A DNA stretch of 64,000 nt from Patescibacteria group bacterium (lineage in GTDB: Bacteria > Patescibacteriota > Patescibacteriia > JBDRGY01): the NCBI GenBank assembly GCA_043817315.1, contig JBDRGY010000002.1, positions 1,046 through 65,045 of the forward strand. Reading direction: 5' to 3'. Below are positions 3,001 to 64,000 of the stretch, piece after piece. Under the pieces are notes generated by a model, which did not search any database, had not been told where the DNA came from, and was given only the letters and a program-made list of their open reading frames with translations. Both the position numbers and the translations under genes were made by a program. How positions within the stretch are numbered: the stretch's first letter is position 1; every line of letters begins with the position of its first letter.

Positions 3001-3677
3001 CAACCATCTGCATTTCCATCTTCAAAATCATCCCAAAAAGCAAAAACTCCGGTTCTGTCCACTGGAGGACTGACTGCAGAATCATTACCATAATACATAT
3101 AATAATCCGTATCAGTAGACGAGGCCGGAATAGCCGCTTGGGTTTTTAACTGAATTGTTGTATCTGATTGATTCCATGATTCTCCGTCAGCTAATACTCG
3201 ATCAAGTTCGTTGTTGGCACCGCCATCCCAGTAGACAATTCTAATATCATCTCCGGAGACCAATGATTTACTGTTGGTAACTAAGTCATCATGATCTAAT
3301 TCCAGGGAAACAGTATAGTCTGTCGCCATTTCCGATCCAATATTATTGGTAACGGTGATTTGTTTGCGAAAACTATAGGAACCGTTCCACCAATTTGATC
3401 CTCCGTCACCATTGATTTCGATGGCATCACCGGTAACCGTAATATCATCCAATGTGCCTAAGTTCCAATCAGCATCTGATGTAATGGTGACTGAACCGGC
3501 TTGAGGAGCGGCCAGGATAATCGGCCATTGAACTATGGAAACTACAAGGGCTAATAACAAAAATACCGAAATCACCAGCTGAATTCGGTATCTTATTTGG
3601 TAAACTCGAAGTCTATGCAAGGCTTGCTGCAACCTTGTTTTTAACTCGCTAATTTGCGATGTCGGATTTCTCCGCAT
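1..3677 (-). CDS. Giant surface-anchored adhesin-like protein, paralog A (5' part of gene; C-terminus lies beyond window start)
   Basis: Minus-strand reading frame open from the ATG at 3677 to the window edge. N-terminus MRRNPTSQISELKTRLQQALHRLRVYQIRYRIQLVISVFLLLALVV has the same signal-anchor architecture as the 3825..8891 product. Long stretches are near-identical at the DNA level to gene B (e.g. ~520-600 vs ~5575-5650; ~1990-2090 vs ~7040-7140). An extended -10 (TGTGATATAATAT) on the minus strand upstream of the ATG. Confidence 0.75.
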   Translation of the reverse strand, partial: MRRNPTSQISELKTRLQQALHRLRVYQIRYRIQLVISVFLLLALVVSIVQWPIILAAPQAGSVTITSDADWNLGTLDDITVTGDAIEINGDGGSNWWNGSYSFRKQITVTNNIGSEMATDYTVSLELDHDDLVTNSKSLVSGDDIRIVYWDGGANNELDRVLADGESWNQSDTTIQLKTQAAIPASSTDTDYYMYYGNDSAVSPPVDRTGVFAFWDDFEDGNADGWTSASMAGTLASATVVGGEYRVDVNSNWYAFWNTSVGTLADYEQIFKVTGEVFDTSHKLLASSGRYQDANNSYMVGRWSSNLYLYRRVGAAWQLMTSTAAPVNVVETQYYFKVQFINYDLKMKVWEVGQAEPGSWELTVTDTNSNFASGYPGFSHYPGIARFDDFQAHKIMSTEPSTSLGSELASLQSPGTYTSQNLDAQYIYTWGDGSAGGSTAFTTNVTTPVNTSAKFEMRHSADGSTGWSSWTTIDTYTSSGTKTKTRTEMVALVGDITNRYIQVKITLTSSDGVSNPSVADYQFDYMKDMDDPTNPDTVNGYSENGGDAITTDTWYNHTGPYFTWSGDDDSDSGMSGGYAGYWVCFGAVDCEPTSGTLRTTATYTASSLVDGTTYYLRIKARDAAGQVTDSAWAAFIYKYDGTEPTNPGVVAADPAGYTNNQDNFTFLWSAGSDAHSGIDQYCYKTGVAGATDTCISETTISSIEAYQEGINKFYVRSKDVAGNVNSSYTSVQYYWSASAPSEPTDLAVDPEISTTNSFTLSWNEPDTHENDIAGYYYSVNQEPTADNSTYTTSTEVSGAFATRQGLNTFYVVAIDEVDNIEWTAYSSVDFTATTTAPGIPQGVIVTDTSSQELETYSLTVTWNTPSFGTVDHYNVNRSEDDSDTYAEISQVTGTGYLDTGLTQNAWYCYRITAVDNAEATSALSTEVCEQARGRYYEPPNLVGNPGAATRIQSAVVEWLTDREGSSFVEYGTTTSYGNEQGQADSVTSHEVTLVGLKPNTVYHYRTKWTDSDSNTGYSTDYTFTTEDAPSAPTNLAVTPTSNTTNSFKFTWGAPVDEGVTIEGYFYSVNSTPTETNTSYTTQTTLGPGAYATQQGDNTFYVVAVDDASNVNYDNYDSVNFEAHTASPPVPTGMIITDSSNRERQSYTITIVWDPLTSASSYGAQATDEEIAYVIERSIDDDDSFTQIAETETYGYLDVGLDNTKTYYYRVKAKDTAGATSAASET

Positions 3678-30501: not shown

Positions 30502-30556
30502 GGGCCGTTAGCTCAGTTGGCTAGAGCGTCACTTTCGCACCCGCCTATCGGAGTGC
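30502..30556 (+). pseudogene. 5' fragment of a tRNA-Ala (CGC)-like gene (acceptor, D-arm and anticodon-loop remnant) directly upstream of the complete tRNA-Ala(CGC)
   Basis: GGGCCGTTAGCTCAGTTGGCTAGAGCGTCACTTTCGCAC is near-identical to the 5' half of the tRNA-Ala at 31767. No matching anticodon 3' stem or T-arm follows. Continues as linker CCGCCTATCGGAGTGC. Confidence 0.5.
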
Positions 30557-30628
30557 GGGCCAGTAGCTCAGTGGTAGAGCACTGCATTCGCATTGCAGGG
30601 GTCAGGGGTTCGACTCCCCTCTGGTCCA
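30557..30628 (+). tRNA. tRNA-Ala (anticodon CGC), G3:U70, no encoded CCA
   Basis: Acceptor GGGCCAG/CTGGTCC (G3:T70), D-arm GCTC-AGTGGTA-GAGC, anticodon stem CTGCA/TGCAG with loop TTCGCAT, T-arm AGGGG-TTCGACT-CCCCT, discriminator A. Confidence 0.9.
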
Positions 30629-30702
30629 TTTCCGCACGGCGGGCAGGTGGCGAAAGTCGCCCCGCTTTTTGGCGGAGCACGGCACCAAATCAAAAAAATG
30701 CC

Positions 30703-30740
30703 TAAAATCAGCCAAATTTTGGCTTGATTGTTTTTACAAA
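30703..30740 (+). terminator. Rho-independent terminator (AGCCAAAATTTTGGCT palindrome plus T-run)
   Basis: Self-complementary CAGCCAAATTTTGGCTTG followed by ATTGTTTTT. Confidence 0.4.
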
Positions 30741-30802
30741 ATGTGTTAGAATTAAGTTGTCCTTAATTTAGAAAAAATCCAAATTGAAAGGGGGTGAACT
30801 AA

Positions 30803-31492
30803 ATGGATACTTTTACATCATGGGGAGACGCCCTAAATAACTCATTAGATAATATCTGGACAGGTTTCCTTGATTTTCTGCCCAAATTCGTAGGGGCAGT
30901 TTTAATCTTCGTAATTGGCTGGATCGTTTCAGTTCTGATCGGAAATTTGGTATCAAGAGTAGTCAAATACCTTTGGGTAGATCGCCTATTACAAAGAATT
31001 AAGGTTAAGGAGGCAGTAGAAAAAGCCGGTATAAAGGTTGATATTGCCAAAAGTATGGGGTTGATAGTTAAGTGGTTTTTGATCTTTGTTTTTCTAACTG
31101 CCGCTACTGATGTTGTGGGTTGGACTGAAGTTACTCTGTTTTTGCGTAAATTCGTCGGTTATCTGCCAAATGTGATTATTGCCGTCATCATCTTCACCTT
31201 GGGCTTAATGTTTGCTAATTGGGTCCAAAGTGTGGTCAAAAAGTCAATTTCCGCCTATAAATTGCTCTCTCCTGAATTAGTATCAGCCATAGCTAAGTGG
31301 TCCATCGTTGTTTTCAGTCTGCTGGCCGCCTTAATCCAGTTAAGGGTCGCTCCTTCACTATTACAAACCTTATTCACAGGTATTGTTGCCATGATCGCTA
31401 TTGCCGGAGGCCTGGCTTTTGGCTTGGGTGGCAAGGAATATGCCCGGAACCTTTTAGAAAAAGTCCAAAAAGACGTCCATCCTAAAGAATAA
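30803..31492 (+). CDS. Membrane protein with repeated conserved TM-helix motifs (MscS-like N-terminal TM_helix repeat family)
   Basis: 229 aa, 4-5 TM helices with repeated (I/V)x(I/V)xxxLxxAA-like segments; RBS GAAAGGGGGTG upstream. Confidence 0.5.
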   Translation: MDTFTSWGDALNNSLDNIWTGFLDFLPKFVGAVLIFVIGWIVSVLIGNLVSRVVKYLWVDRLLQRIKVKEAVEKAGIKVDIAKSMGLIVKWFLIFVFLTAATDVVGWTEVTLFLRKFVGYLPNVIIAVIIFTLGLMFANWVQSVVKKSISAYKLLSPELVSAIAKWSIVVFSLLAALIQLRVAPSLLQTLFTGIVAMIAIAGGLAFGLGGKEYARNLLEKVQKDVHPKE

Positions 31493-31707
31493 AGACTAAA
31501 AACGCTTGCTAGTATTTCTCTTTTTAAGCTATAATCTTTCTAGTAAGCGTTTTTGTTTATGGGCCGGTCCCTAGGTCCCGCACTGCGGGACCGGGATCCC
31601 GATCACCAAAAGTGACTTAGGGATAGTTCAGTTTCCGCCAAAGGCGGACCAGCCTCTGGCTGGGGCTATCATCTCTTTGCGATAAAAAGTATTATATTAA
31701 TCAATTT

Positions 31708-31891
31708 GGGCCGGTAGTTCAGTTAGCTAGAATGCCTCCATGGCATGCCTGCCCGCCAGGACCCATGGGCCGTTGGCTCAGTTGGTAGAGCGTCTCCATG
31801 GCATGGAGAAGGTCACCGGTTCGAATCCGGTCCGGTCCATAGGCTCTGGCAGGCGGGGAGGAGGTCAGGGGTTCGAGTCCCCTCCGGTCTA
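31708..31891 (+). tRNA. Outer tRNA-Ala (GGC) gene interrupted between positions 38 and 39 by a 110-nt insert (31747..31856) that contains a second complete tRNA-Ala(GGC)
   Basis: 5' exon 31708..31746: GGGCCGG TA GTTC-AGTTAGCTA-GAAT G CCTCC ATGGCAT. 3' exon 31857..31891: GGAGG AGGTC AGGGG-TTCGAGT-CCCCT CCGGTCT A, followed by TTTTTTATTT. All stems pair (G1:U72, G3:U70). Insert flanks GCCTGCCCGCC and GGCAGGCGGGG are mutually complementary. Confidence 0.5.
31767..31839 (+). tRNA. tRNA-Ala (anticodon GGC), nested inside the outer tRNA-Ala locus; no encoded CCA
   Basis: Acceptor GGGCCGT with G3:T70, D-arm GCTC-AGTTGGTA-GAGC, anticodon stem TCTCC/GGAGA with loop ATGGCAT, T-arm ACCGG-TTCGAAT-CCGGT, discriminator A. 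Confidence 0.85.
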
Positions 31892-38087: not shown

Positions 38088-38171
38088 ACTGTTCCTTTAG
38101 CTCCATCGAGCCTGCCTATCGGCAGACAGGCTGGTCTCGATGGAGTTTTTTAATTTGCTATAATAAAGATA

Positions 38172-54426: not shown

Positions 54427-54486
54427 TCCTTCGACAAGCTCAGGATGAGCATTGGAGAAGGATGCCCTGAATTTATTGAAGGGCAA

Positions 54487-54744
54487 ATGAAATATTACGT
54501 CTATATTTTAAAATGTGACGAGGAAAATTTATATACGGGATCGACTTGTGATTTGAAAAATCGGATTGAAAAGCATAAAAAAGGAGAAGGTGCTATATTT
54601 ACCAGAAACAGAAAATCGATTAAACTTGTATATAAAGAACTTTATAAAATAAGGGAGTTGGCTGAAAAAAGAGAAAAGCAGATAAAAGGGTGGTGCAGAA
54701 AAAAGAAGATAAATTTAATCAAATTTGGCCATCCTCTAGGGTAA
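54487..54744 (+). CDS. Small GIY-YIG nuclease-domain protein (85 aa)
   Basis: MKYYVYILKCDEENLYTGSTCDLKNRIEKHKKGEG; GIY-YIG core (YVYIL...LYTGST...R...H). The upstream part of the ORF-track ORF overlaps tRNA-Cys and is excluded. Confidence 0.75.
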   Translation: MKYYVYILKCDEENLYTGSTCDLKNRIEKHKKGEGAIFTRNRKSIKLVYKELYKIRELAEKREKQIKGWCRKKKINLIKFGHPLG

Positions 54745-55829: not shown

Positions 55830-55901
55830 AGCGGGTGAGCGGAATCGAACCGCCGTCTTCAGGTTGGAAACCTGACATAATAGCCACTATACTACACCCG
55901 C
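55830..55901 (-). tRNA. tRNA-Gly (anticodon TCC), no encoded CCA
   Basis: Minus-strand sequence GCGGGTG TA GTAT-AGTGGCTA-TTAT G TCAGG TTTCCAA CCTGA AGAC GGCGG-TTCGATT-CCGCT CACCCGC T. Confidence 0.85.
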
Positions 55902-55958
55902 CCGCCCAATTCCTGGAACCTACATCTTTCTAGATAAGTTACAAGAATTGGGCGGGCG
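55899..55958. repeat. Perfect 14-bp inverted repeat CGCCCGCCCAATTC ... GAATTGGGCGGGCG with 32-nt loop, overlapping the 5' end of tRNA-Gly(TCC)
   Basis: Arms at 55899-55912 and 55945-55958 are exact reverse complements. Lies immediately downstream of the minus-strand GIY-YIG gene stop (55963). Confidence 0.5.
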
Positions 55959-55962
55959 CGCC

Positions 55963-56220
55963 TTAACGAGACGCTAGATAATTTTTTAAGTTTTTCTTAA
56001 TAAATCTTCTCCCCCAGCCACTTTTATAGTATCTTTCTCTCTGGAGGGCATCTTGCTTGCTCAGGAAAGCTTCGCAATAAATTAACTTCAGTGGTAAGTG
56101 GGGCTGGGTTGAATAAGTTGACCCTTTATTGTGTTCTTTGACTCTCTTCTTTAGATTCTTGGTGAATCCTATATATAACCTGCCATTTTTCTCACTTTGT
56201 AGAATGTACACGTAATACAT
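55963..56220 (-). CDS. Small GIY-YIG nuclease-domain protein (85 aa), second copy
   Basis: MYYVYILQSEKNGRLYIGFTKNLKKRVKEHNKG; GIY-YIG motif. Confidence 0.75.
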   Translation of the reverse strand: MYYVYILQSEKNGRLYIGFTKNLKKRVKEHNKGSTYSTQPHLPLKLIYCEAFLSKQDALQRERYYKSGWGRRFIKKNLKNYLASR

Positions 56221-56247
56221 CTGGGTTTAACGAATAATTAAACCCCG

Positions 56248-60030: not shown

Positions 60031-60284
60031 TGGTGCCGAGGGGCAGAATCGAACTGCCGACGCAAGGATTTTCAGTCCTTCGCCCCGCCCGCCGAACAAC
60101 GGCGAACTTGGAAGTAATCTACCTTTGGTGCCTGGGGCCAGAATCGGACTGGCGACGCAAGGATTTTCAGTCCTTCGCTCTACCACTGAGCTACCCAGGC
60201 TTCAAAGACAGACTACAAATTTCTTTTTCAATCAACTATATTCGCTCGGCGTTGCGGACAGGTCTACCACTGAGCTACCTCGGC
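60031..60284 (-). other. Nested tRNA-Phe locus: split outer tRNA-Phe-like copy flanking the complete tRNA-Phe
   Basis: 5' fragment 60263-60284 is GCCGAGG TA GCTCAGTGGTAGA. 3' fragment 60031-60082 is CGAAGGA CTGAAAA TCCTT GCGTC GGCAG-TTCGATT-CTGCC CCTCGGC A CCA. Acceptor strands GCCGAGG/CCTCGGC pair across the intervening complete gene. Linkers contain CCTGTCCGC and GGCGGGCGGGG. Confidence 0.5.
60126..60200 (-). tRNA. tRNA-Phe (anticodon GAA), CCA encoded
   Basis: Minus strand: GCCTGGG TA GCTC-AGTGGTA-GAGC G AAGGA CTGAAAA TCCTT GCGTC GCCAG-TCCGATT-CTGGC CCCAGGC A CCA. Confidence 0.9.
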
Positions 60285-60356: not shown

Positions 60357-62003
60357 CTATTTTGGGGAATATTTATAGATTCTAACGTAATCACCCTTAA
60401 GCAAATCTACCCGGCAAGTTCTTAAAACCGAAAAGTCGTTACTGTATAAAAGCTGTTCGGGAGTGTATTCCGGGTTAGGTTCTACGGCGTAGATTAATTC
60501 GTTTTGGGAGGTTAGTTGCTGGTACTGTTCCGCCGCCCAGACAAAGTTGGGTTCGGGATCGGGGAAACCAGCCTCCTGAAGAATGCGACCGTGTACCCCT
60601 CCGGAAATGATGAAGTGGGTCGCTCCTTGCTTTTCATATTCTTCTCGGTCTCGCACAGTTAAATTGGGAACCTTTTCGGTAATATATTTATCAGCAGGCA
60701 AATCCGGGGTATACGGTTCTACTACAAATTCAGTACCTTCCGGCATTTCCCGTAATATATATTGGCGTGCTTTCTCAATAGTGTAGTCATCCGCCCAACC
60801 GTACATGGTCCGAGCTAAGCGCCAGGCAGGGGCAGCAAATATGATTATACAGATTAAAACCGCTAACCAGCGGCGGCGACTACAATACTTAAAAATATAA
60901 TCAAGACCGGCTGCTCCCATGATAAATAAGATAGTAACCGCCGGGATCAACCATCTGGCCCAGTGCAGATTAAGAACGGACAGCAATAAAATGTAGCTGA
61001 TGACGCTGATTAACAGAAAGAAAAACTTAAATTCACGCTGGCTATATTTCTTTTTGATTATCTTGTAGCAAATAAAAAATATAATTGCTAGGGTTATCAA
61101 AAATAGAAAGGTGCCCAGTTGCCAGTGTAGAGTATCTATGGTATACCATTTTAAATTGCCCCAAAAACCAAGATCATCATGACCTCCGTGCTCCGTCCGG
61201 TTTTCAATTACCAGATGATAAAGCACACGGTGGAAATTCAAAAATAAAAACGGCCCGGTGACAAAGCTAGCCACAATAGCTGCAAAACCACTGGCCAGCC
61301 AGTTCTTGATAAACAGTTTCTTCTGACGCCACAACCAAACAAATATCATGATTAGTGGCACTACAAAAAATAGAGAAGGATATTTAGTAGCCGCGGCCAC
61401 TCCCAGGCTGGCTCCGACCCCCAGATACCAACCAATTTTGGCCGGCTGATCGATCAAGCGGAAGACAAAAAACAACATCAGCATCAAGAAAAAAGTTTGG
61501 ATAATGTCTGGTCGGATTATATGTGAGTGGTCCACCAGAAAAAATGAGGTGGCCACCAGAATTGCAGCTATAATTCCTGTTCTTTTATTCCAGTGCTTAC
61601 CGACAAAGTAGGCCAACAAAACAGTAGCCGCTCCCAAGAGAGCAGGTAACATCCGGCCGGCTGTCTGAAAAATGGTGGTAAATAACTGGTAGTTTTGGGA
61701 AGCGGCTAAGGCAGTCTCGTGAGCTTGGTTAACAAAAAAGTTAATAATTCTAAAAATAAAACCCATGCCATAGATCAGGGACTGGGCAGGAGCACCAAAC
61801 CAGCCGGGGTTTAAAGCACCGTTGGCAATATTGAGGGCCGGTTCTACGAAAAATTCTTCATCCACCAAATAAAGCCGGGGTAATCCAAAACTGATAAAGA
61901 CCAAACGCAAAATCAGGCCAATTAAAAAAATCGCCATTAGTATGATGAATATCTTGCTGGGCTTGCGAATATGTTTCATTCCTTTGGCGATTATGGTGGG
62001 CAC
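60357..62003 (-). CDS. GT-C superfamily membrane glycosyltransferase (GT39/ArnT/PMT-like), second copy
   Basis: 548 aa, about 12 TM helices plus a C-terminal soluble domain. The ORF-track start is a GTG at 62003 that overlaps the outer tRNA-Ile 3' fragment; the ATG at 61979 is an alternative start. Confidence 0.55.
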   Translation of the reverse strand: MPTIIAKGMKHIRKPSKIFIILMAIFLIGLILRLVFISFGLPRLYLVDEEFFVEPALNIANGALNPGWFGAPAQSLIYGMGFIFRIINFFVNQAHETALAASQNYQLFTTIFQTAGRMLPALLGAATVLLAYFVGKHWNKRTGIIAAILVATSFFLVDHSHIIRPDIIQTFFLMLMLFFVFRLIDQPAKIGWYLGVGASLGVAAATKYPSLFFVVPLIMIFVWLWRQKKLFIKNWLASGFAAIVASFVTGPFLFLNFHRVLYHLVIENRTEHGGHDDLGFWGNLKWYTIDTLHWQLGTFLFLITLAIIFFICYKIIKKKYSQREFKFFFLLISVISYILLLSVLNLHWARWLIPAVTILFIMGAAGLDYIFKYCSRRRWLAVLICIIIFAAPAWRLARTMYGWADDYTIEKARQYILREMPEGTEFVVEPYTPDLPADKYITEKVPNLTVRDREEYEKQGATHFIISGGVHGRILQEAGFPDPEPNFVWAAEQYQQLTSQNELIYAVEPNPEYTPEQLLYSNDFSVLRTCRVDLLKGDYVRIYKYSPK

Positions 62004-62379
62004 GGATGGATTCGAACCATCGACCTCGTCATTACCTGCCCGCCGTACGGATACACGTATTAATCATCTACTGCTGGTGGGCACGGATGGAGTTGAACCA
62101 TCGACCTCGTCATTATCAGTGACGCGCTCTAACCAACTGAGCTACGTGCCCCCCAGCAGTAGACAAAAATAAACTTCCTATTGGTTGGGTTAATGTAAAA
62201 GTTCTTTGAGGCACCGTACTCCGGCAGGCGGGTCAGTGACCCCGCAACTAGGTTCGTTACACTCGCCAGTGCGGGGCAGGCGCGCTTTCCTATTTGGTGC
62301 TTACAGTAAGTTGGTGCGCTCCCCGTCCGACTGTCTGGCGTCAGTCAAGCTGACGGGTAGCTAACTGAGCTACGTGCCC
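61994..62379 (-). other. Nested tRNA-Ile locus: split outer tRNA-Ile-like copy flanking the complete tRNA-Ile(GAT)
   Basis: 5' fragment 62358-62379 is GGGCACG TA GCTCAGTTAGCTA. 3' fragment 61994-62034 is TAA TGACG AGGTC GATGG-TTCGAAT-CCATC CGTGCCC A CCA, preceded by GGCGGGCAGG (62035-62048). The upstream linker contains CCCGCCTGCC and GCCTGCCCCGC. Confidence 0.5.
62075..62151 (-). tRNA. tRNA-Ile (anticodon GAT), CCA encoded
   Basis: Minus strand: GGGCACG TA GCTC-AGTTGGTTA-GAGC G CGTCA CTGATAA TGACG AGGTC GATGG-TTCAACT-CCATC CGTGCCC A CCA. Confidence 0.9.
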
Positions 62380-62448: not shown

Positions 62449-63096
62449 TTATAGTCCGGACTTTTCTTCCGGTCTTTCCTGTAAACTGGCGTCAAAAATA
62501 AAGCGATTGAGAATTATGTGCCACTTATCCTTTACTTGCGGCCACTCTGTTTTTATGCCGGAAAAGCGCTTAACTACCACCACCAGTAACAAGCCGATAA
62601 AGACCCAGCCCTGCCAATAAGGAAGCCTAAAGATAACCACAGCTACTGGTAGGCAGGAGAAAAACAAAATCATGGGAATGGGTGTATGTTTGGTTATTAT
62701 CCAAAAAATGATAAAAATTATGAAGCAGTAGAGAAAGGCTTTGGGCGCTAACACGGCAGCCAGGCCAAGGCCAGCTCCACCTCCTCGTCCTTCTCCCCGT
62801 TTTAAGAAAATTGACCAGTTGTGCCCGACCACCCCCAGTACACCACCAATTGCTCCTATCATCGGCCAGCCCAGATAATTGCCGATGAGCACCGGCAAGA
62901 CTCCTTTGGAAATATCCAGAGCCCCGGAAATGATCGCCGGCCCTACTCCGGCTGTCCGGGCTACATTGGACCCGCCCATTTTTCGCCAACCATGTTCGGT
63001 GACATCGATACCTTTGAATATTTTGCCGGCGAAAAAACCAAAAGACATAGCTCCCCAAAGGTAACAAGTGATCAAAAATATTATCTGCCAAATCAT
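62449..63096 (-). CDS. plsY: Glycerol-3-phosphate acyltransferase PlsY
   Basis: About 6 TM helices; IDVTEHGWRKMGGSNVARTAG corresponds to the PlsY motif (REHGSGNxGATN) and overall PlsY length and topology. Confidence 0.7.
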   Translation of the reverse strand: MIWQIIFLITCYLWGAMSFGFFAGKIFKGIDVTEHGWRKMGGSNVARTAGVGPAIISGALDISKGVLPVLIGNYLGWPMIGAIGGVLGVVGHNWSIFLKRGEGRGGGAGLGLAAVLAPKAFLYCFIIFIIFWIITKHTPIPMILFFSCLPVAVVIFRLPYWQGWVFIGLLLVVVVKRFSGIKTEWPQVKDKWHIILNRFIFDASLQERPEEKSGL

Positions 63097-63448
63097 GCAT
63101 TAACTATATCACAAGATAAGAAACTATCCAGGCTCCTGGCCCAATATGGACACCCCTAGCAGGGGTCATGCCACTTTCGCCGATTTCTCCAACCGGTAAG
63201 TCTTTCTTGAGAGAGAAACAGTTGGCTCTAAGGTCAATCAGATTTTAGTCTCTGTGTAGCCATTGGCCATGGGGAAATTGTATCAAAAAAAGCCGATTTA
63301 AATAAATCGACTAATTTTCTGCCTTTAGCAGCTAAATGGTAACAGAAAGGAAACGTTTTCCCTCCGCCTAAGGCGGGGGGCCGACCTATCTCTAGGTAAA
63401 GAGATTGGATAAAGTGCCGAATTCGGGCACTCTATCAATTATTCTCCC

Positions 63449-64000
63449 TAGAAAGGAGGTGATCCATCCACAGCTTCCGCTACGGATGCCTTGTTACGAC
63501 TTCGTCCCTATTATCGATCCTACCTTCGGCCCAGTAAACTGGGACTTCGGGTATTACCGACTCTCTTGACGTGACGGGCGGTGTGTACAAAACCCGAGAA
63601 CGTATTCAACGCGCCGTGGCTGATGCGCGTTTACTAGTGATTCCAGCTTCATGAGGTCGAGTTTCAGACCTCAATCCGAACTGAGACTAGGTTTGATGGG
63701 ATTAGCTCCACGTTACCGTTTCGCAAGACCCATTGTTACTAGCCATTGTAGCACGTGTGTCGCCCAGGGCGTCAGAGGACCATGCTGATCTGACGTCATC
63801 CCTTCCTTCCTCCCCCTTAAAGGGGGCAGTCTGACATGAACAATTTAACATATCACAGGGGTTGCGCTCGTTTCCGGACTTAACCGTACATCTCACGACA
63901 CGAGCTGACGACGACCATGCAGCACCTGTCACTAGGCTCCTTTGCAGGCACATTCTCCTTTCGGTGAATTTCCTAGGATGTCAAGCCCTGGTAAGGTTTC
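63449..64000 (-). rRNA. rrs: 16S ribosomal RNA, 3' portion (continues beyond window end)
   Basis: Plus strand carries reverse complements of the universal 16S 3' motifs: AGAAAGGAGGTGATCC (anti-SD end), TACGGCTACCTTGTTACGACTT-like ACGGATGCCTTGTTACGACTT, TGACGGGCGGTGTGTACAA and GCATGGTCGTCGTCAGCTCGTG. The covered region corresponds to roughly E. coli positions 970-1542. Confidence 0.9.

Follow-up and report, generated by a model that had tools for sequence, protein, structure and literature searches.

Four tRNA genes in the window studied here, a stretch of 64,000 nucleotides of contig JBDRGY010000002.1 from a small-genome, metagenome-assembled Patescibacteria group bacterium, each enclose a second, complete tRNA, and we consider it probable that the tRNA-bearing inserts belong to a mobile family of DNA cassettes carrying a replacement tRNA, with the interrupted outer gene being dead. 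The 3′ end of a bacterial-type 16S rRNA at 63452–64000 identifies the window (G+C content, 44%) as bacterial. Thirteen tRNA calls were obtained in this 64-kb window with ARAGORN and Rfam, and the nested genes account for four of its 12 working tRNA genes. The layout is that of a tRNA in a tRNA: the 5′ and 3′ pieces of one tRNA enclose, in this order, a linker (L1), a whole tRNA with the anticodon of the interrupted gene, and a second linker (L2). It had been claimed for Ala-CGC, Ala-GGC, Phe, and Ile in the original prediction, made without database searches, and was confirmed at all four loci from the flanks; the interval to which it had been assigned, 30502–31891, holds the two Ala loci, those of Phe and Ile lying elsewhere in the window. 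All four inner tRNAs pass the RF00005 gathering threshold (29 bits), each with a cloverleaf and an anticodon, and in-silico removal of the inserts at the motif borders restores ARAGORN cloverleafs for Ala(GGC), Phe(GAA), and Ile(GAT), the last after removal of three inserts. The parts of the four loci are as follows, terminus types I and II being defined below.

Locus A, tRNA-Ala(CGC)
30502–30539, + strand: outer tRNA-Ala(CGC) 5′ part, positions 1–37; 93% identity over 30 nt with the 5′ part of the inner Ala-GGC tRNA
30540–30556, + strand: L1, left cassette arm, type II terminus CCCGCCT...; pairs with L2
30557–30628, + strand: inner tRNA-Ala(CGC), presumed working copy; ARAGORN, and Rfam RF00005 at 70.1 bits
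30629–30647, + strand: L2, right arm, terminal GGCGGGCAGG; exact motif match
30648–30687, + strand: decayed outer 3′ remnant, terminal ACGGCACCA; excision yields no tRNA
Locus B, tRNA-Ala(GGC)
31708–31747, + strand: outer tRNA-Ala(GGC) 5′ part, to position 39; tRNA-Ala(GGC) restored by excision
31748–31766, + strand: L1, type I terminus CCTGCCCGCCA...; stem pairing and register analysis
31767–31839, + strand: inner tRNA-Ala(GGC); Rfam, 59 bits
31840–31857, + strand: L2, ...TGGCAGGCGGG; pairs with L1
31858–31891, + strand: outer tRNA-Ala(GGC) 3′ part, then a T run; excision test
Locus C, tRNA-Phe
60263–60284, − strand: outer tRNA-Phe 5′ part, positions 1–23; sequence match and excision
60201–60262, − strand: L1, CCTGTCCGC... 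followed by an AT-rich stretch and a tRNA-proximal stem; fold
60126–60200, − strand: inner tRNA-Phe(GAA); Rfam, 68.1 bits
60084–60125, − strand: L2, ...GGCGGGCGGG; motif match and fold
60031–60083, − strand: outer tRNA-Phe 3′ part, positions 24–76; sequence match and excision
Locus D, tRNA-Ile
61994–62379, − strand: whole locus; four exons, three inserts
62358–62379, − strand: outer tRNA-Ile exon 1, positions 1–21; sequence match and excision
62322–62357, − strand: insert 1 at 21/22, cargo-less 36-nt hairpin CCCGTC...GACGGG; fold
62316–62321, − strand: exon 2, GAGCGC, positions 22–27; excision
62241–62315, − strand: insert 2 at 27/28, 75 nt, probably composite, containing CCTGCCCCGCA...TGCGGGG; fold
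62233–62240, − strand: exon 3, GTCACTGA, positions 28–35; excision
62152–62232, − strand: L1 of the tRNA-carrying insert 3 at 35/36, type II, CCCGCCTGCCGGAGTACGG...; fold
62075–62151, − strand: inner tRNA-Ile(GAT); Rfam, 75.8 bits
62035–62074, − strand: L2, ...CCGTACGGCGGGCAGG; exact motif match
61994–62034, − strand: exon 4, positions 36–76; 95% identity with the inner tRNA over 41 nt

The flanking motif pair described as common to these loci is present at all four, its sequences and orientation varying among them: it reads CCTGCCCGCC...GGCAGGCGGG in Ala-GGC, CCCGCCT...GGCGGGCAGG, the reverse-complement orientation, in both Ala-CGC and Ile, and CCTGTCCGC...GGCGGGCGGG in Phe. Complementarity of L1 and L2 was borne out by folds showing a helix in every locus, and L2 directly abuts the outer 3′ part in three loci, as anticipated (Ala-GGC, Phe, and Ile). 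The L1 of locus A is homologous to that of Ile, with one compensatory change. Concerning the split points, that of Phe (23/24) was correctly placed, that of Ala-CGC had to be moved to 37/38, that of Ala-GGC is 39/40 or 38/39 (a 1-nt ambiguity), and a supposed 21/36 split of Ile gave way to inserts at 21/22, 27/28, and 35/36 with no base of the exon sequence missing; only insert 3 has tRNA cargo. The inner tRNA is identical to the joined outer exons at 73 of 77 positions in Ile, the four differences all falling in the D and T loops, and to the outer copy at 68 of 75 positions in Phe, the differences including compensatory pairs in the acceptor and T stems. The outer copies have decayed unequally, as was claimed: that of Ala-CGC has lost its 3′ half, is unrecognisable as a tRNA, and gives none after excision, and that of Ala-GGC, taken to be intact, regains its cloverleaf but lacks G18 in its D loop (AGTTAGCTA), as does the D loop of the outer Ile. 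At Ala-CGC, the end of the 5′ exon, ACTTTCGC (30531–30538, anticodon included), is the reverse complement of the post-cassette bases GCGAAAGT (30650–30657) that start the 3′ remnant, and this complementarity prolongs the cassette stem into the flanks.

With one mismatch allowed, GGCGGGCAGG has 12 matches in the window versus 2.7 expected, four to five times the number in shuffled sequences, and none of 100 shuffles reached 12. Three exact matches and two with one mismatch lie at the nested loci, exact copies being present nowhere else in the window, and the combined L1–tRNA–L2 pattern gives two matches in the window and none in the shuffles. When one genome per species was scanned with the pattern CCCGCC-N45-75-GGTTCRANTCC-N15-45-GGCRGGCRGG, at least 117 matching stretches were found, and an inner tRNA is held by 108 of 121 matches. 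Those from high-GC actinobacteria, planctomycetes, and myxobacteria look like chance. All 91 low-GC matches, located in 89 loci with the window included, contain a tRNA flanked by the two halves of another one; an alignment of the flanks with the inner tRNA runs gap-free across the junction in 87 matches. Following rule-based excision, 44 outer copies are callable by ARAGORN, of which 40 share the anticodon of the inner tRNA and the other four are decayed, and about half of the outers still fold. Among the low-GC matches listed, no clear cassette was seen outside a cognate tRNA gene, and the remaining ones are nested but decayed. The same termini are found at about 87 further nested loci, and the argument from recurrence to a specific mechanism is supported. 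Of the candidates put forward for it, a tRNA-carrying insertion cassette with complementary termini in a cognate gene is supported, and a programmed split/duplication system is not.

Cassettes of this type are present in about ninety bacterial species besides that of the window. Their hosts are mostly Patescibacteria (Saccharibacteria, Parcubacteria groups, Microgenomates groups, Dojkabacteria, Berkelbacteria, and others); they further include Bacteroidota, both Flavobacteriaceae and members outside that family, with the cultured strains Flagellimonas beolgyonensis KCTC 23501 and Aestuariivivens insulae AH-MY3 represented. Two of the genomes with the same nested structure are from isolates (L049 and L111). 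Homologues of window cassettes occupy the same sites elsewhere, namely Ala-GGC in L097 and Ala-CGC, at 37/38, in L089; the identity between locus B and L097 is 63/73 for the inner tRNAs and 29/34 for the outer 3′ parts. Many low-GC metagenome-assembled genomes with typical Patescibacteria-like loci (L013, L017, L018, L021, L036, L037, L040, L052, and others) are labelled 'uncultured Gammaproteobacteria' or 'Pseudomonadales' in ENA; these labels look unreliable, so the spread beyond Patescibacteria and Bacteroidota is uncertain. A scan of viral contigs gave five matches, four of them the same sequence, all with 59% GC and none nested, and hence no sign of phage carriage. In the open-access literature, we found no description of nested, interrupted, or split bacterial tRNAs of this kind, of the motif strings, or of GIY-YIG genes with tRNAs in the Candidate Phyla Radiation (CPR).

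The cassettes are 108–198 nt long. The window inserts measure 36–198 nt, of which 72–77 nt are tRNA in the tRNA-bearing ones. Their ends are terminal inverted repeats, CCYGCCYGCC(A)...(T)GGCRGGCRGG, imperfect over 10–11 nt with two fixed mismatched positions and built on the core (CCYG)2CC / GG(CRGG)2. Type I termini (CCTGCCCGCC...GGCAGGCGGG) were assigned to 44 loci and type II (CCCGCCTGCC...GGCGGGCAGG), which is type I turned round relative to the tRNA, to 22 loci; an Arg-specific class, CCCGCCCGAC...GGCGGGCGGG, was found in 14 loci. The ten bases at either end of 29 type I elements form a helix that includes one fixed U·G and one fixed C·A; its outermost pair, made by the two terminal nucleotides of the insert (C1:G40), is present in all 29 sequences. 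The next seven positions of the stem covary (0.165 versus 0.078 when shuffled; none of 500 shuffles reached this value), far above slid registers. The mean duplex energy of L1:L2 is −22.4 kcal/mol as compared with −14.7 kcal/mol with shuffled L2. Insertion points cluster at about 21 and 23 in the D arm, with a favoured D-side range of about positions 16–23 in or beside the D loop, and at 33–37 in the anticodon loop, 35/36 being commonest; few are in the T loop. Of 65 inserts, 41 are preceded by A and two by T. Insertion is precise, with exact joins in the tRNAs and no target duplication. With regard to single-strand elements of the IS200/IS605 or REP/RAYT type, which leave no duplication and insert 3′ of a fixed tetra- or pentanucleotide, the inserts have no fixed 5′ flank, only an A-rich and T-poor position −1, and no HUH transposase gene was seen in 209 clustered low-GC loci (loci only, not whole genomes).

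Such an arrangement could also be produced by an intron acting at the RNA level, in which the outer tRNA is functional, L1–tRNA–L2 is removed (e.g., by RNase P and RNase Z, or by another endonuclease), and the exons are ligated, giving two tRNAs per transcript. This would agree with the precision of the inserts in loops at known tRNA intron positions (the commonest insertion point in the anticodon loop, 35/36, is also the site of group I introns in Patescibacteria, PMC13011429), with the fraction of outers that fold after excision, with window Ile exons that are perfect across three inserts, and with a covarying L1:L2 helix. However, Rfam searches of the inserts, run with permissive filters up to E ≤ 1, returned the tRNA and no intron or ribozyme, and the inserts are far shorter than group I introns. 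Cleavage geometry of the bulge-helix-bulge (BHB) type, proposed as a check in the original prediction, is excluded because a single uninterrupted helix has both junctions at its base. In addition, the decay of the outers forms a continuum in which many are beyond repair by any splicing (and G18 is absent from those of Ile and Ala-GGC), inner and outer anticodons always agree, a match that an intron would not require, the termini are found in both orientations, and the cargo-less palindrome described below never occurs in an otherwise intact tRNA. The intron-like element among the earlier candidates is accordingly disfavoured; we regard such splicing as very unlikely, and the evidence supports inserts that are DNA insertion cassettes rather than introns.

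No close sequenced relative of the window organism is available: a search through its PMT-like protein gave none in the genome contigs searched, the next PlsY homologue is only 33% identical, and an exact look-up of its channel-like protein had no match. Orthologous comparison of the window was thus impossible, and Flavobacteriaceae were used instead. At their queD–tRNA-Val(GAC) locus, the tRNA is uninterrupted in five sister species. In F. beolgyonensis (L111), a cassette is inserted at 18/19, and the outer copy has exactly the native Val(GAC) sequence in its acceptor, D, and T arms; the outer T arm contains a short GC palindrome, and the outer anticodon arm has been lost, with a perfect 18-nt palindrome in its place. 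In a Croceitalea genome (L076), the outer matches the native Croceitalea gene with indels, and the cassette is at 21/22. L111 and L076 have one and the same inner tRNA sequence, which is set apart from all native genes by compensatory changes in three stems. In Flavobacteriaceae, therefore, the resident gene is the outer one and the inner tRNA has come from elsewhere: the same cassette moved between genera and was inserted independently at different sites, the resident copy being left to decay. These loci show that cassettes have been horizontally transferred between genomes and re-inserted at different positions. In a further observation, an intact tRNA-Val(GAC) of Allomuricauda sp. d1 (L249, about 1720–2000) stands ahead of at least four tandemly arrayed units, each consisting of a tRNA 3′ part (about positions 44–76) and a spacer with the hairpin TCCGCCTCTGGCGGA.

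Across the loci, 76% of the outer stem pairs are intact as against 100% of the inner ones (the latter figure being true by construction of ARAGORN calls), the broken outer pairs range from 0 to 13 per locus, and the differences between inner and outer copies include 160 that are compensatory. At the syntenic Thr-CGT locus, the cassette is of type I and located at 23/24 in some lineages; in others, two Saccharibacteria among them, it is of type II and located at 35/36. Cassettes also occur inside tRNAs that are themselves cassette cargo (L004 and L013); in L004, the outermost, third nesting level is visible by eye and too decayed for ARAGORN. A comparison of inner–inner with outer–outer identities as a test of horizontal transfer in Patescibacteria was uninformative, being dominated by outer decay. 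Promoter-like sites are found only upstream of outer 5′ parts, which is weak evidence.

An origin in situ would need no transfer: a GC hairpin landed in a tRNA gene, the same gene was later duplicated into its tip by replication or repair errors, and the locus was inherited vertically. It would suit the confinement of cassettes to cognate genes and the copies in L092 and L096, which are 100% identical, including trailer or leader bases, with tandemly repeated 5′ fragments. In L092, three tandem copies of '5′ tRNA fragment + L1' stand ahead of a nested tRNA-Arg(CCG) at 3120–3400, where the identity extends to 3 nt of the trailer, indicating a very recent event or concerted evolution. Against it are the inner tRNAs of L111 and L076, identical, at different positions and unlike either host's native gene, the empty sites of sister species, the different cassette types and sites in the same syntenic Thr-CGT gene, and the 160 compensatory differences. 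We therefore hold an origin in situ to be very unlikely.

As tRNA genes are classic integration sites, with sublocations in the anticodon and T loops, the loci might alternatively be scars of integrase-mediated prophage or island integration, later stripped of nearly all DNA, which would place tRNA fragments next to intact tRNAs as observed. Such integration is expected to leave a direct core repeat and a partial tRNA copy, whereas 87 loci have complementary halves and no repeat; inserts of cassette size with conserved inverted termini would likewise not be expected, and they offer no room for open reading frames (ORFs). The check for nearby recombinases that had been proposed revealed no integrase gene near the cassettes, and the neighbouring genes are unrelated. 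We consider scars of this kind extremely unlikely. Equally hard to credit are ordinary precursor-processing stems, or chance debris and mis-assembly of repeated tRNA sequence. GC-rich hairpins are indeed common around window tRNAs; however, the non-nested window tRNAs lack the motif pair, in agreement with the original prediction, the halves join exactly in 87 loci, and the same structure is present in the isolates and in an independent ENA assembly of this organism, which matches the Ile locus with one mismatch in 1652 nt.

The cassette termini also occur back to back, without cargo, as a 20-nt perfect palindrome, CCTGCCTGCCGGCAGGCAGG, in at least 120 metagenome contigs (L118–L237), mostly of low GC; among the matches listed, 114 of 127 copies have exactly this sequence. 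The ends of the palindrome are sharp, and direct repeats of at least 2 nt flank it in six of 96 cases, i.e., there is no target duplication. No target consensus was found around it except for T depletion at −1. It is mostly intergenic (19% inside long open frames, compared with 62% of random positions), with a weak enrichment in loops of pre-existing hairpins (p = 0.02). In none of 127 cases does it interrupt an otherwise intact tRNA, which argues against its being spliced. In a few long ORFs, the palindrome is read in frame (L222 12286–12305, and L150, L209, L177, and L158); the L222 copy encodes SLPAGRQV in a P-type ATPase, just ahead of the GDGINDAP motif. Because 20 nt is not a multiple of three, an in-frame insertion must have been accompanied by another small change. 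The window has several further related hairpins and one recognisable member of the same element family outside tRNA.

38111–38130, strand not assigned: degenerate cargo-less palindrome CCTGCCTATCGGCAGACAGG; identified by sequence

This copy caps a 10-bp hairpin (38101–38151) followed by a T run between two genes, the whole resembling a terminator whose loop is occupied by the element.

Two small genes of the GIY-YIG family, whose inspection had been proposed in the original prediction, adjoin tRNA-Gly genes of the window.

55963–56226, − strand: small UPF0213-type GIY-YIG gene, candidate trans-acting nuclease; 60 nt upstream of tRNA-Gly(TCC)
54460–54744, + strand: second small GIY-YIG gene, candidate nuclease; ends 10 nt before tRNA-Gly(GCC)

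A hairpin, CCCGCCCAATTC...GAATTGGGCGGG (55901–55956), lies between the former gene and tRNA-Gly(TCC). The closest solved relatives of the encoded proteins are UPF0213 proteins and Slx1. That proposal proved fruitful, as GIY-YIG is the sole gene family enriched beside the palindrome and beside duplicated or nested tRNAs, although no such gene is present inside the four window cassettes. Among the palindrome matches listed, it was found on seven contigs, in five within 64 bp, and at cassette loci all 11 GIY-YIG ORFs lie 0–313 bp from a tRNA, 10 of them within 41 bp (p = 1e-7). In a repeated module, a tRNA 5′ remnant is followed by a GIY-YIG ORF and an intact tRNA of the same type that supplies the last codons and stop of the ORF, and GC hairpins, either the palindrome or others, split the remnant at 12/13, 21/22, 23/24, or 35/36; the tRNA-Glu module of L096 is fully nested with copies that are 100% identical. 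More generally, GIY-YIG genes encoding 79–116 aa stand directly 5′ of co-oriented tRNAs in the window and in L011, L013, L024, L035, L042, L044, L068, L091, and L096, often overlapping the first 10–22 nt of the tRNA, whose TAG or TAA serves as the stop codon. The tight linkage to palindromes and to duplicated or nested tRNAs elsewhere, together with the position beside the two window tRNA-Gly genes, makes a small UPF0213-type GIY-YIG nuclease the best candidate driver of the cassettes.

In the reading we favour, each resident tRNA gene has received, cleanly and without target-site duplication, a small cassette consisting of a complete tRNA of the same anticodon at the tip of the GC-rich L1:L2 stem. 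The insertion would kill the resident outer gene, which would then decay and gather further small GC hairpins, its function being taken over by the inner tRNA. The latter may be transcribed off the resident promoter within a long precursor, in which the L1:L2 clamp would shield the inner cloverleaf from mispairing with the near-identical outer halves and leave 2–3 unpaired nucleotides ahead of +1 for RNase P. With the resident gene destroyed, the host would be unable to lose the cassette, an addiction-type selfish strategy. Since the joints between tRNA and terminus share no homology, the cassette appears to be joined into a break rather than recombined in; in the movement model we prefer, a nuclease would break tRNA genes, the cassette would fill the break, and insertions other than cognate ones would be lost. 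Breaks made in tRNA genes generally, with viability restricted to cognate insertions, may explain the absence of cassettes outside cognate genes. Under the GIY-YIG version of this model, the four cassettes of the window would be ORF-less members resembling miniature inverted-repeat transposable elements (MITEs). Taken together, the observations point to a selfish element that replaces the gene it destroys and that is apparently undescribed. A more far-reaching proposal, which we put forward only tentatively and judge rather doubtful as a whole, is that of a new selfish class acting on tRNA genes in Patescibacteria and Bacteroidota, in which domain-only GIY-YIG nucleases would break these genes or act on the (CCYG)2CC palindromic ends, and cassette joining, host dependence, and repeated nesting would make it a main shaper of tRNA loci.

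Several points weigh against replacement cassettes that leave a dead outer gene. Eight loci have no broken outer pair at all; the Ile exons of the window keep perfect stems despite three inserts, and a spliced intron would look alike; and the full identity of inner and outer in L092 and L096 is as compatible with duplication in situ or gene conversion as with import. The window cassettes themselves encode no transposase, recombinase, or nuclease, the edges of the ORF-bearing modules are without (CCYG)2CC termini, and no GIY-YIG gene is present at the Flavobacteriaceae cassette loci within the stretch examined, so that this nuclease is a candidate by association. Lastly, we infer tRNA-directed breaks plus selection as the cause of the cognate-only occurrence.

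Other features of the window concern its tRNA and rRNA genes. A plsY gene is situated between the 16S 3′ end and the tRNA-Ile locus (62449–63452), a GC hairpin, CCCCGCCTTAGGCGGAGGG, directly follows the 16S gene, and no 23S follows in the window, so that the rRNA genes do not form an intact operon. Two tRNA-like remnants precede the Ala-GGC locus (31561–31608 and 31620–31673), one with a tRNA-Ala-like start and a ...CACCA end, the other with its body replaced by two 15-nt GC hairpins, TCCGCCAAAGGCGGA and CCAGCCTCTGGCTGG. Hairpins near-identical to these two are also inserted in dead copies of tRNAs from other phyla-level lineages (L090, L097, L102, L117, and L249).

We found no description in the open-access literature of an element persisting by destroying an essential single-copy gene while carrying its replacement, a strategy unlike that of introns, which splice out, and of islands, which restore the 3′ end only. 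For genome annotation, the outer halves and the hairpin debris are liable to mis-calling or neglect, and the working tRNA can be a foreign allele. For the long-standing question of the origin of interrupted, split, and multiply disrupted archaeal tRNA genes, the cassettes provide a parallel in bacteria, and they suggest a possible role both for UPF0213 GIY-YIG proteins, for which no functional assignment was found, and for the 20-nt palindrome. The system is experimentally approachable, as cultured Flavobacteriaceae carry a cassette and close relatives carry the empty site.

Among known systems, islands and prophages integrated into tRNA genes by tyrosine integrases likewise target tRNA loops, carry tRNA sequence that restores the gene, and leave a displaced fragment. 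They are, however, kilobases long, encode an integrase, bring a 3′ segment only, and have direct repeats at both ends, whereas the cassettes are 0.1–0.2 kb long and have a whole tRNA, inverted GC termini, no repeat, and no integrase. Group I introns in Patescibacteria tRNA genes share the phylum, the genes, and the favoured site 35/36 with the cassettes, and both are overlooked by standard tRNA annotation; these introns are self-splicing ribozymes, detectable by covariance models, and the gene they interrupt is functional (Nakagawa et al. 2026, PMC13011429). In contrast, the cassettes show no ribozyme signature and carry a complete tRNA, and the interrupted gene decays. The archaeal BHB, multi-intron, split, and permuted tRNAs resemble them in having many non-canonical interruptions, sometimes several in one gene, and complementary sequences joining the halves. 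Those systems depend on a splicing endonuclease, have functional exons, and hold their splice sites in two 3-nt bulges with a 4-bp helix between; the cassettes are found in a bacterial host, with junctions at the base of a continuous helix and pseudogenic exons.

MITEs, REP/RAYT, Rickettsia palindromic elements, and the GC clusters of yeast mitochondria are also short GC-rich palindromes in AT-rich genomes, numerous and non-autonomous, and such small palindromic repeats are mostly intergenic and occasionally located in frame within genes or in RNA genes, like the palindrome of the cassettes. To our knowledge, none carries a complete tRNA or sits specifically in a cognate tRNA gene. Terminal inverted repeats are common to classic MITEs and the cassettes, but the former leave target duplications and the latter leave none, and no family matching the 20-nt unit and the termini was found in the open-access literature. 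Free-standing GIY-YIG genes and 'collaborative homing' similarly combine a small GIY-YIG gene beside a conserved target, insertions interrupting that target, and spread over multiple lineages, and the structure of the product resembles that of duplicative repair, as with homing systems. Known homing GIY-YIG enzymes (e.g., I-TevI) possess DNA-binding domains, whereas the UPF0213 proteins here are domain-only candidate nucleases, and homing introns self-splice, whereas the cassettes do not and bring a whole replacement gene instead. In the same organisms, CPR rRNA genes have short (<200 bp), uncharacterised, ORF-less inserts at the tips or bases of stem-loops, as well as inserts other than group I/II introns that encode GIY-YIG proteins (Tsurumaki et al. 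2024, PMC11270868); tRNA genes, palindromes, and a carried replacement gene are not mentioned in that report. Each of the nearest systems shares some traits with the cassettes; group I introns, BHB introns, integrase islands, and classic MITEs each differ from them in a defining feature that was tested.

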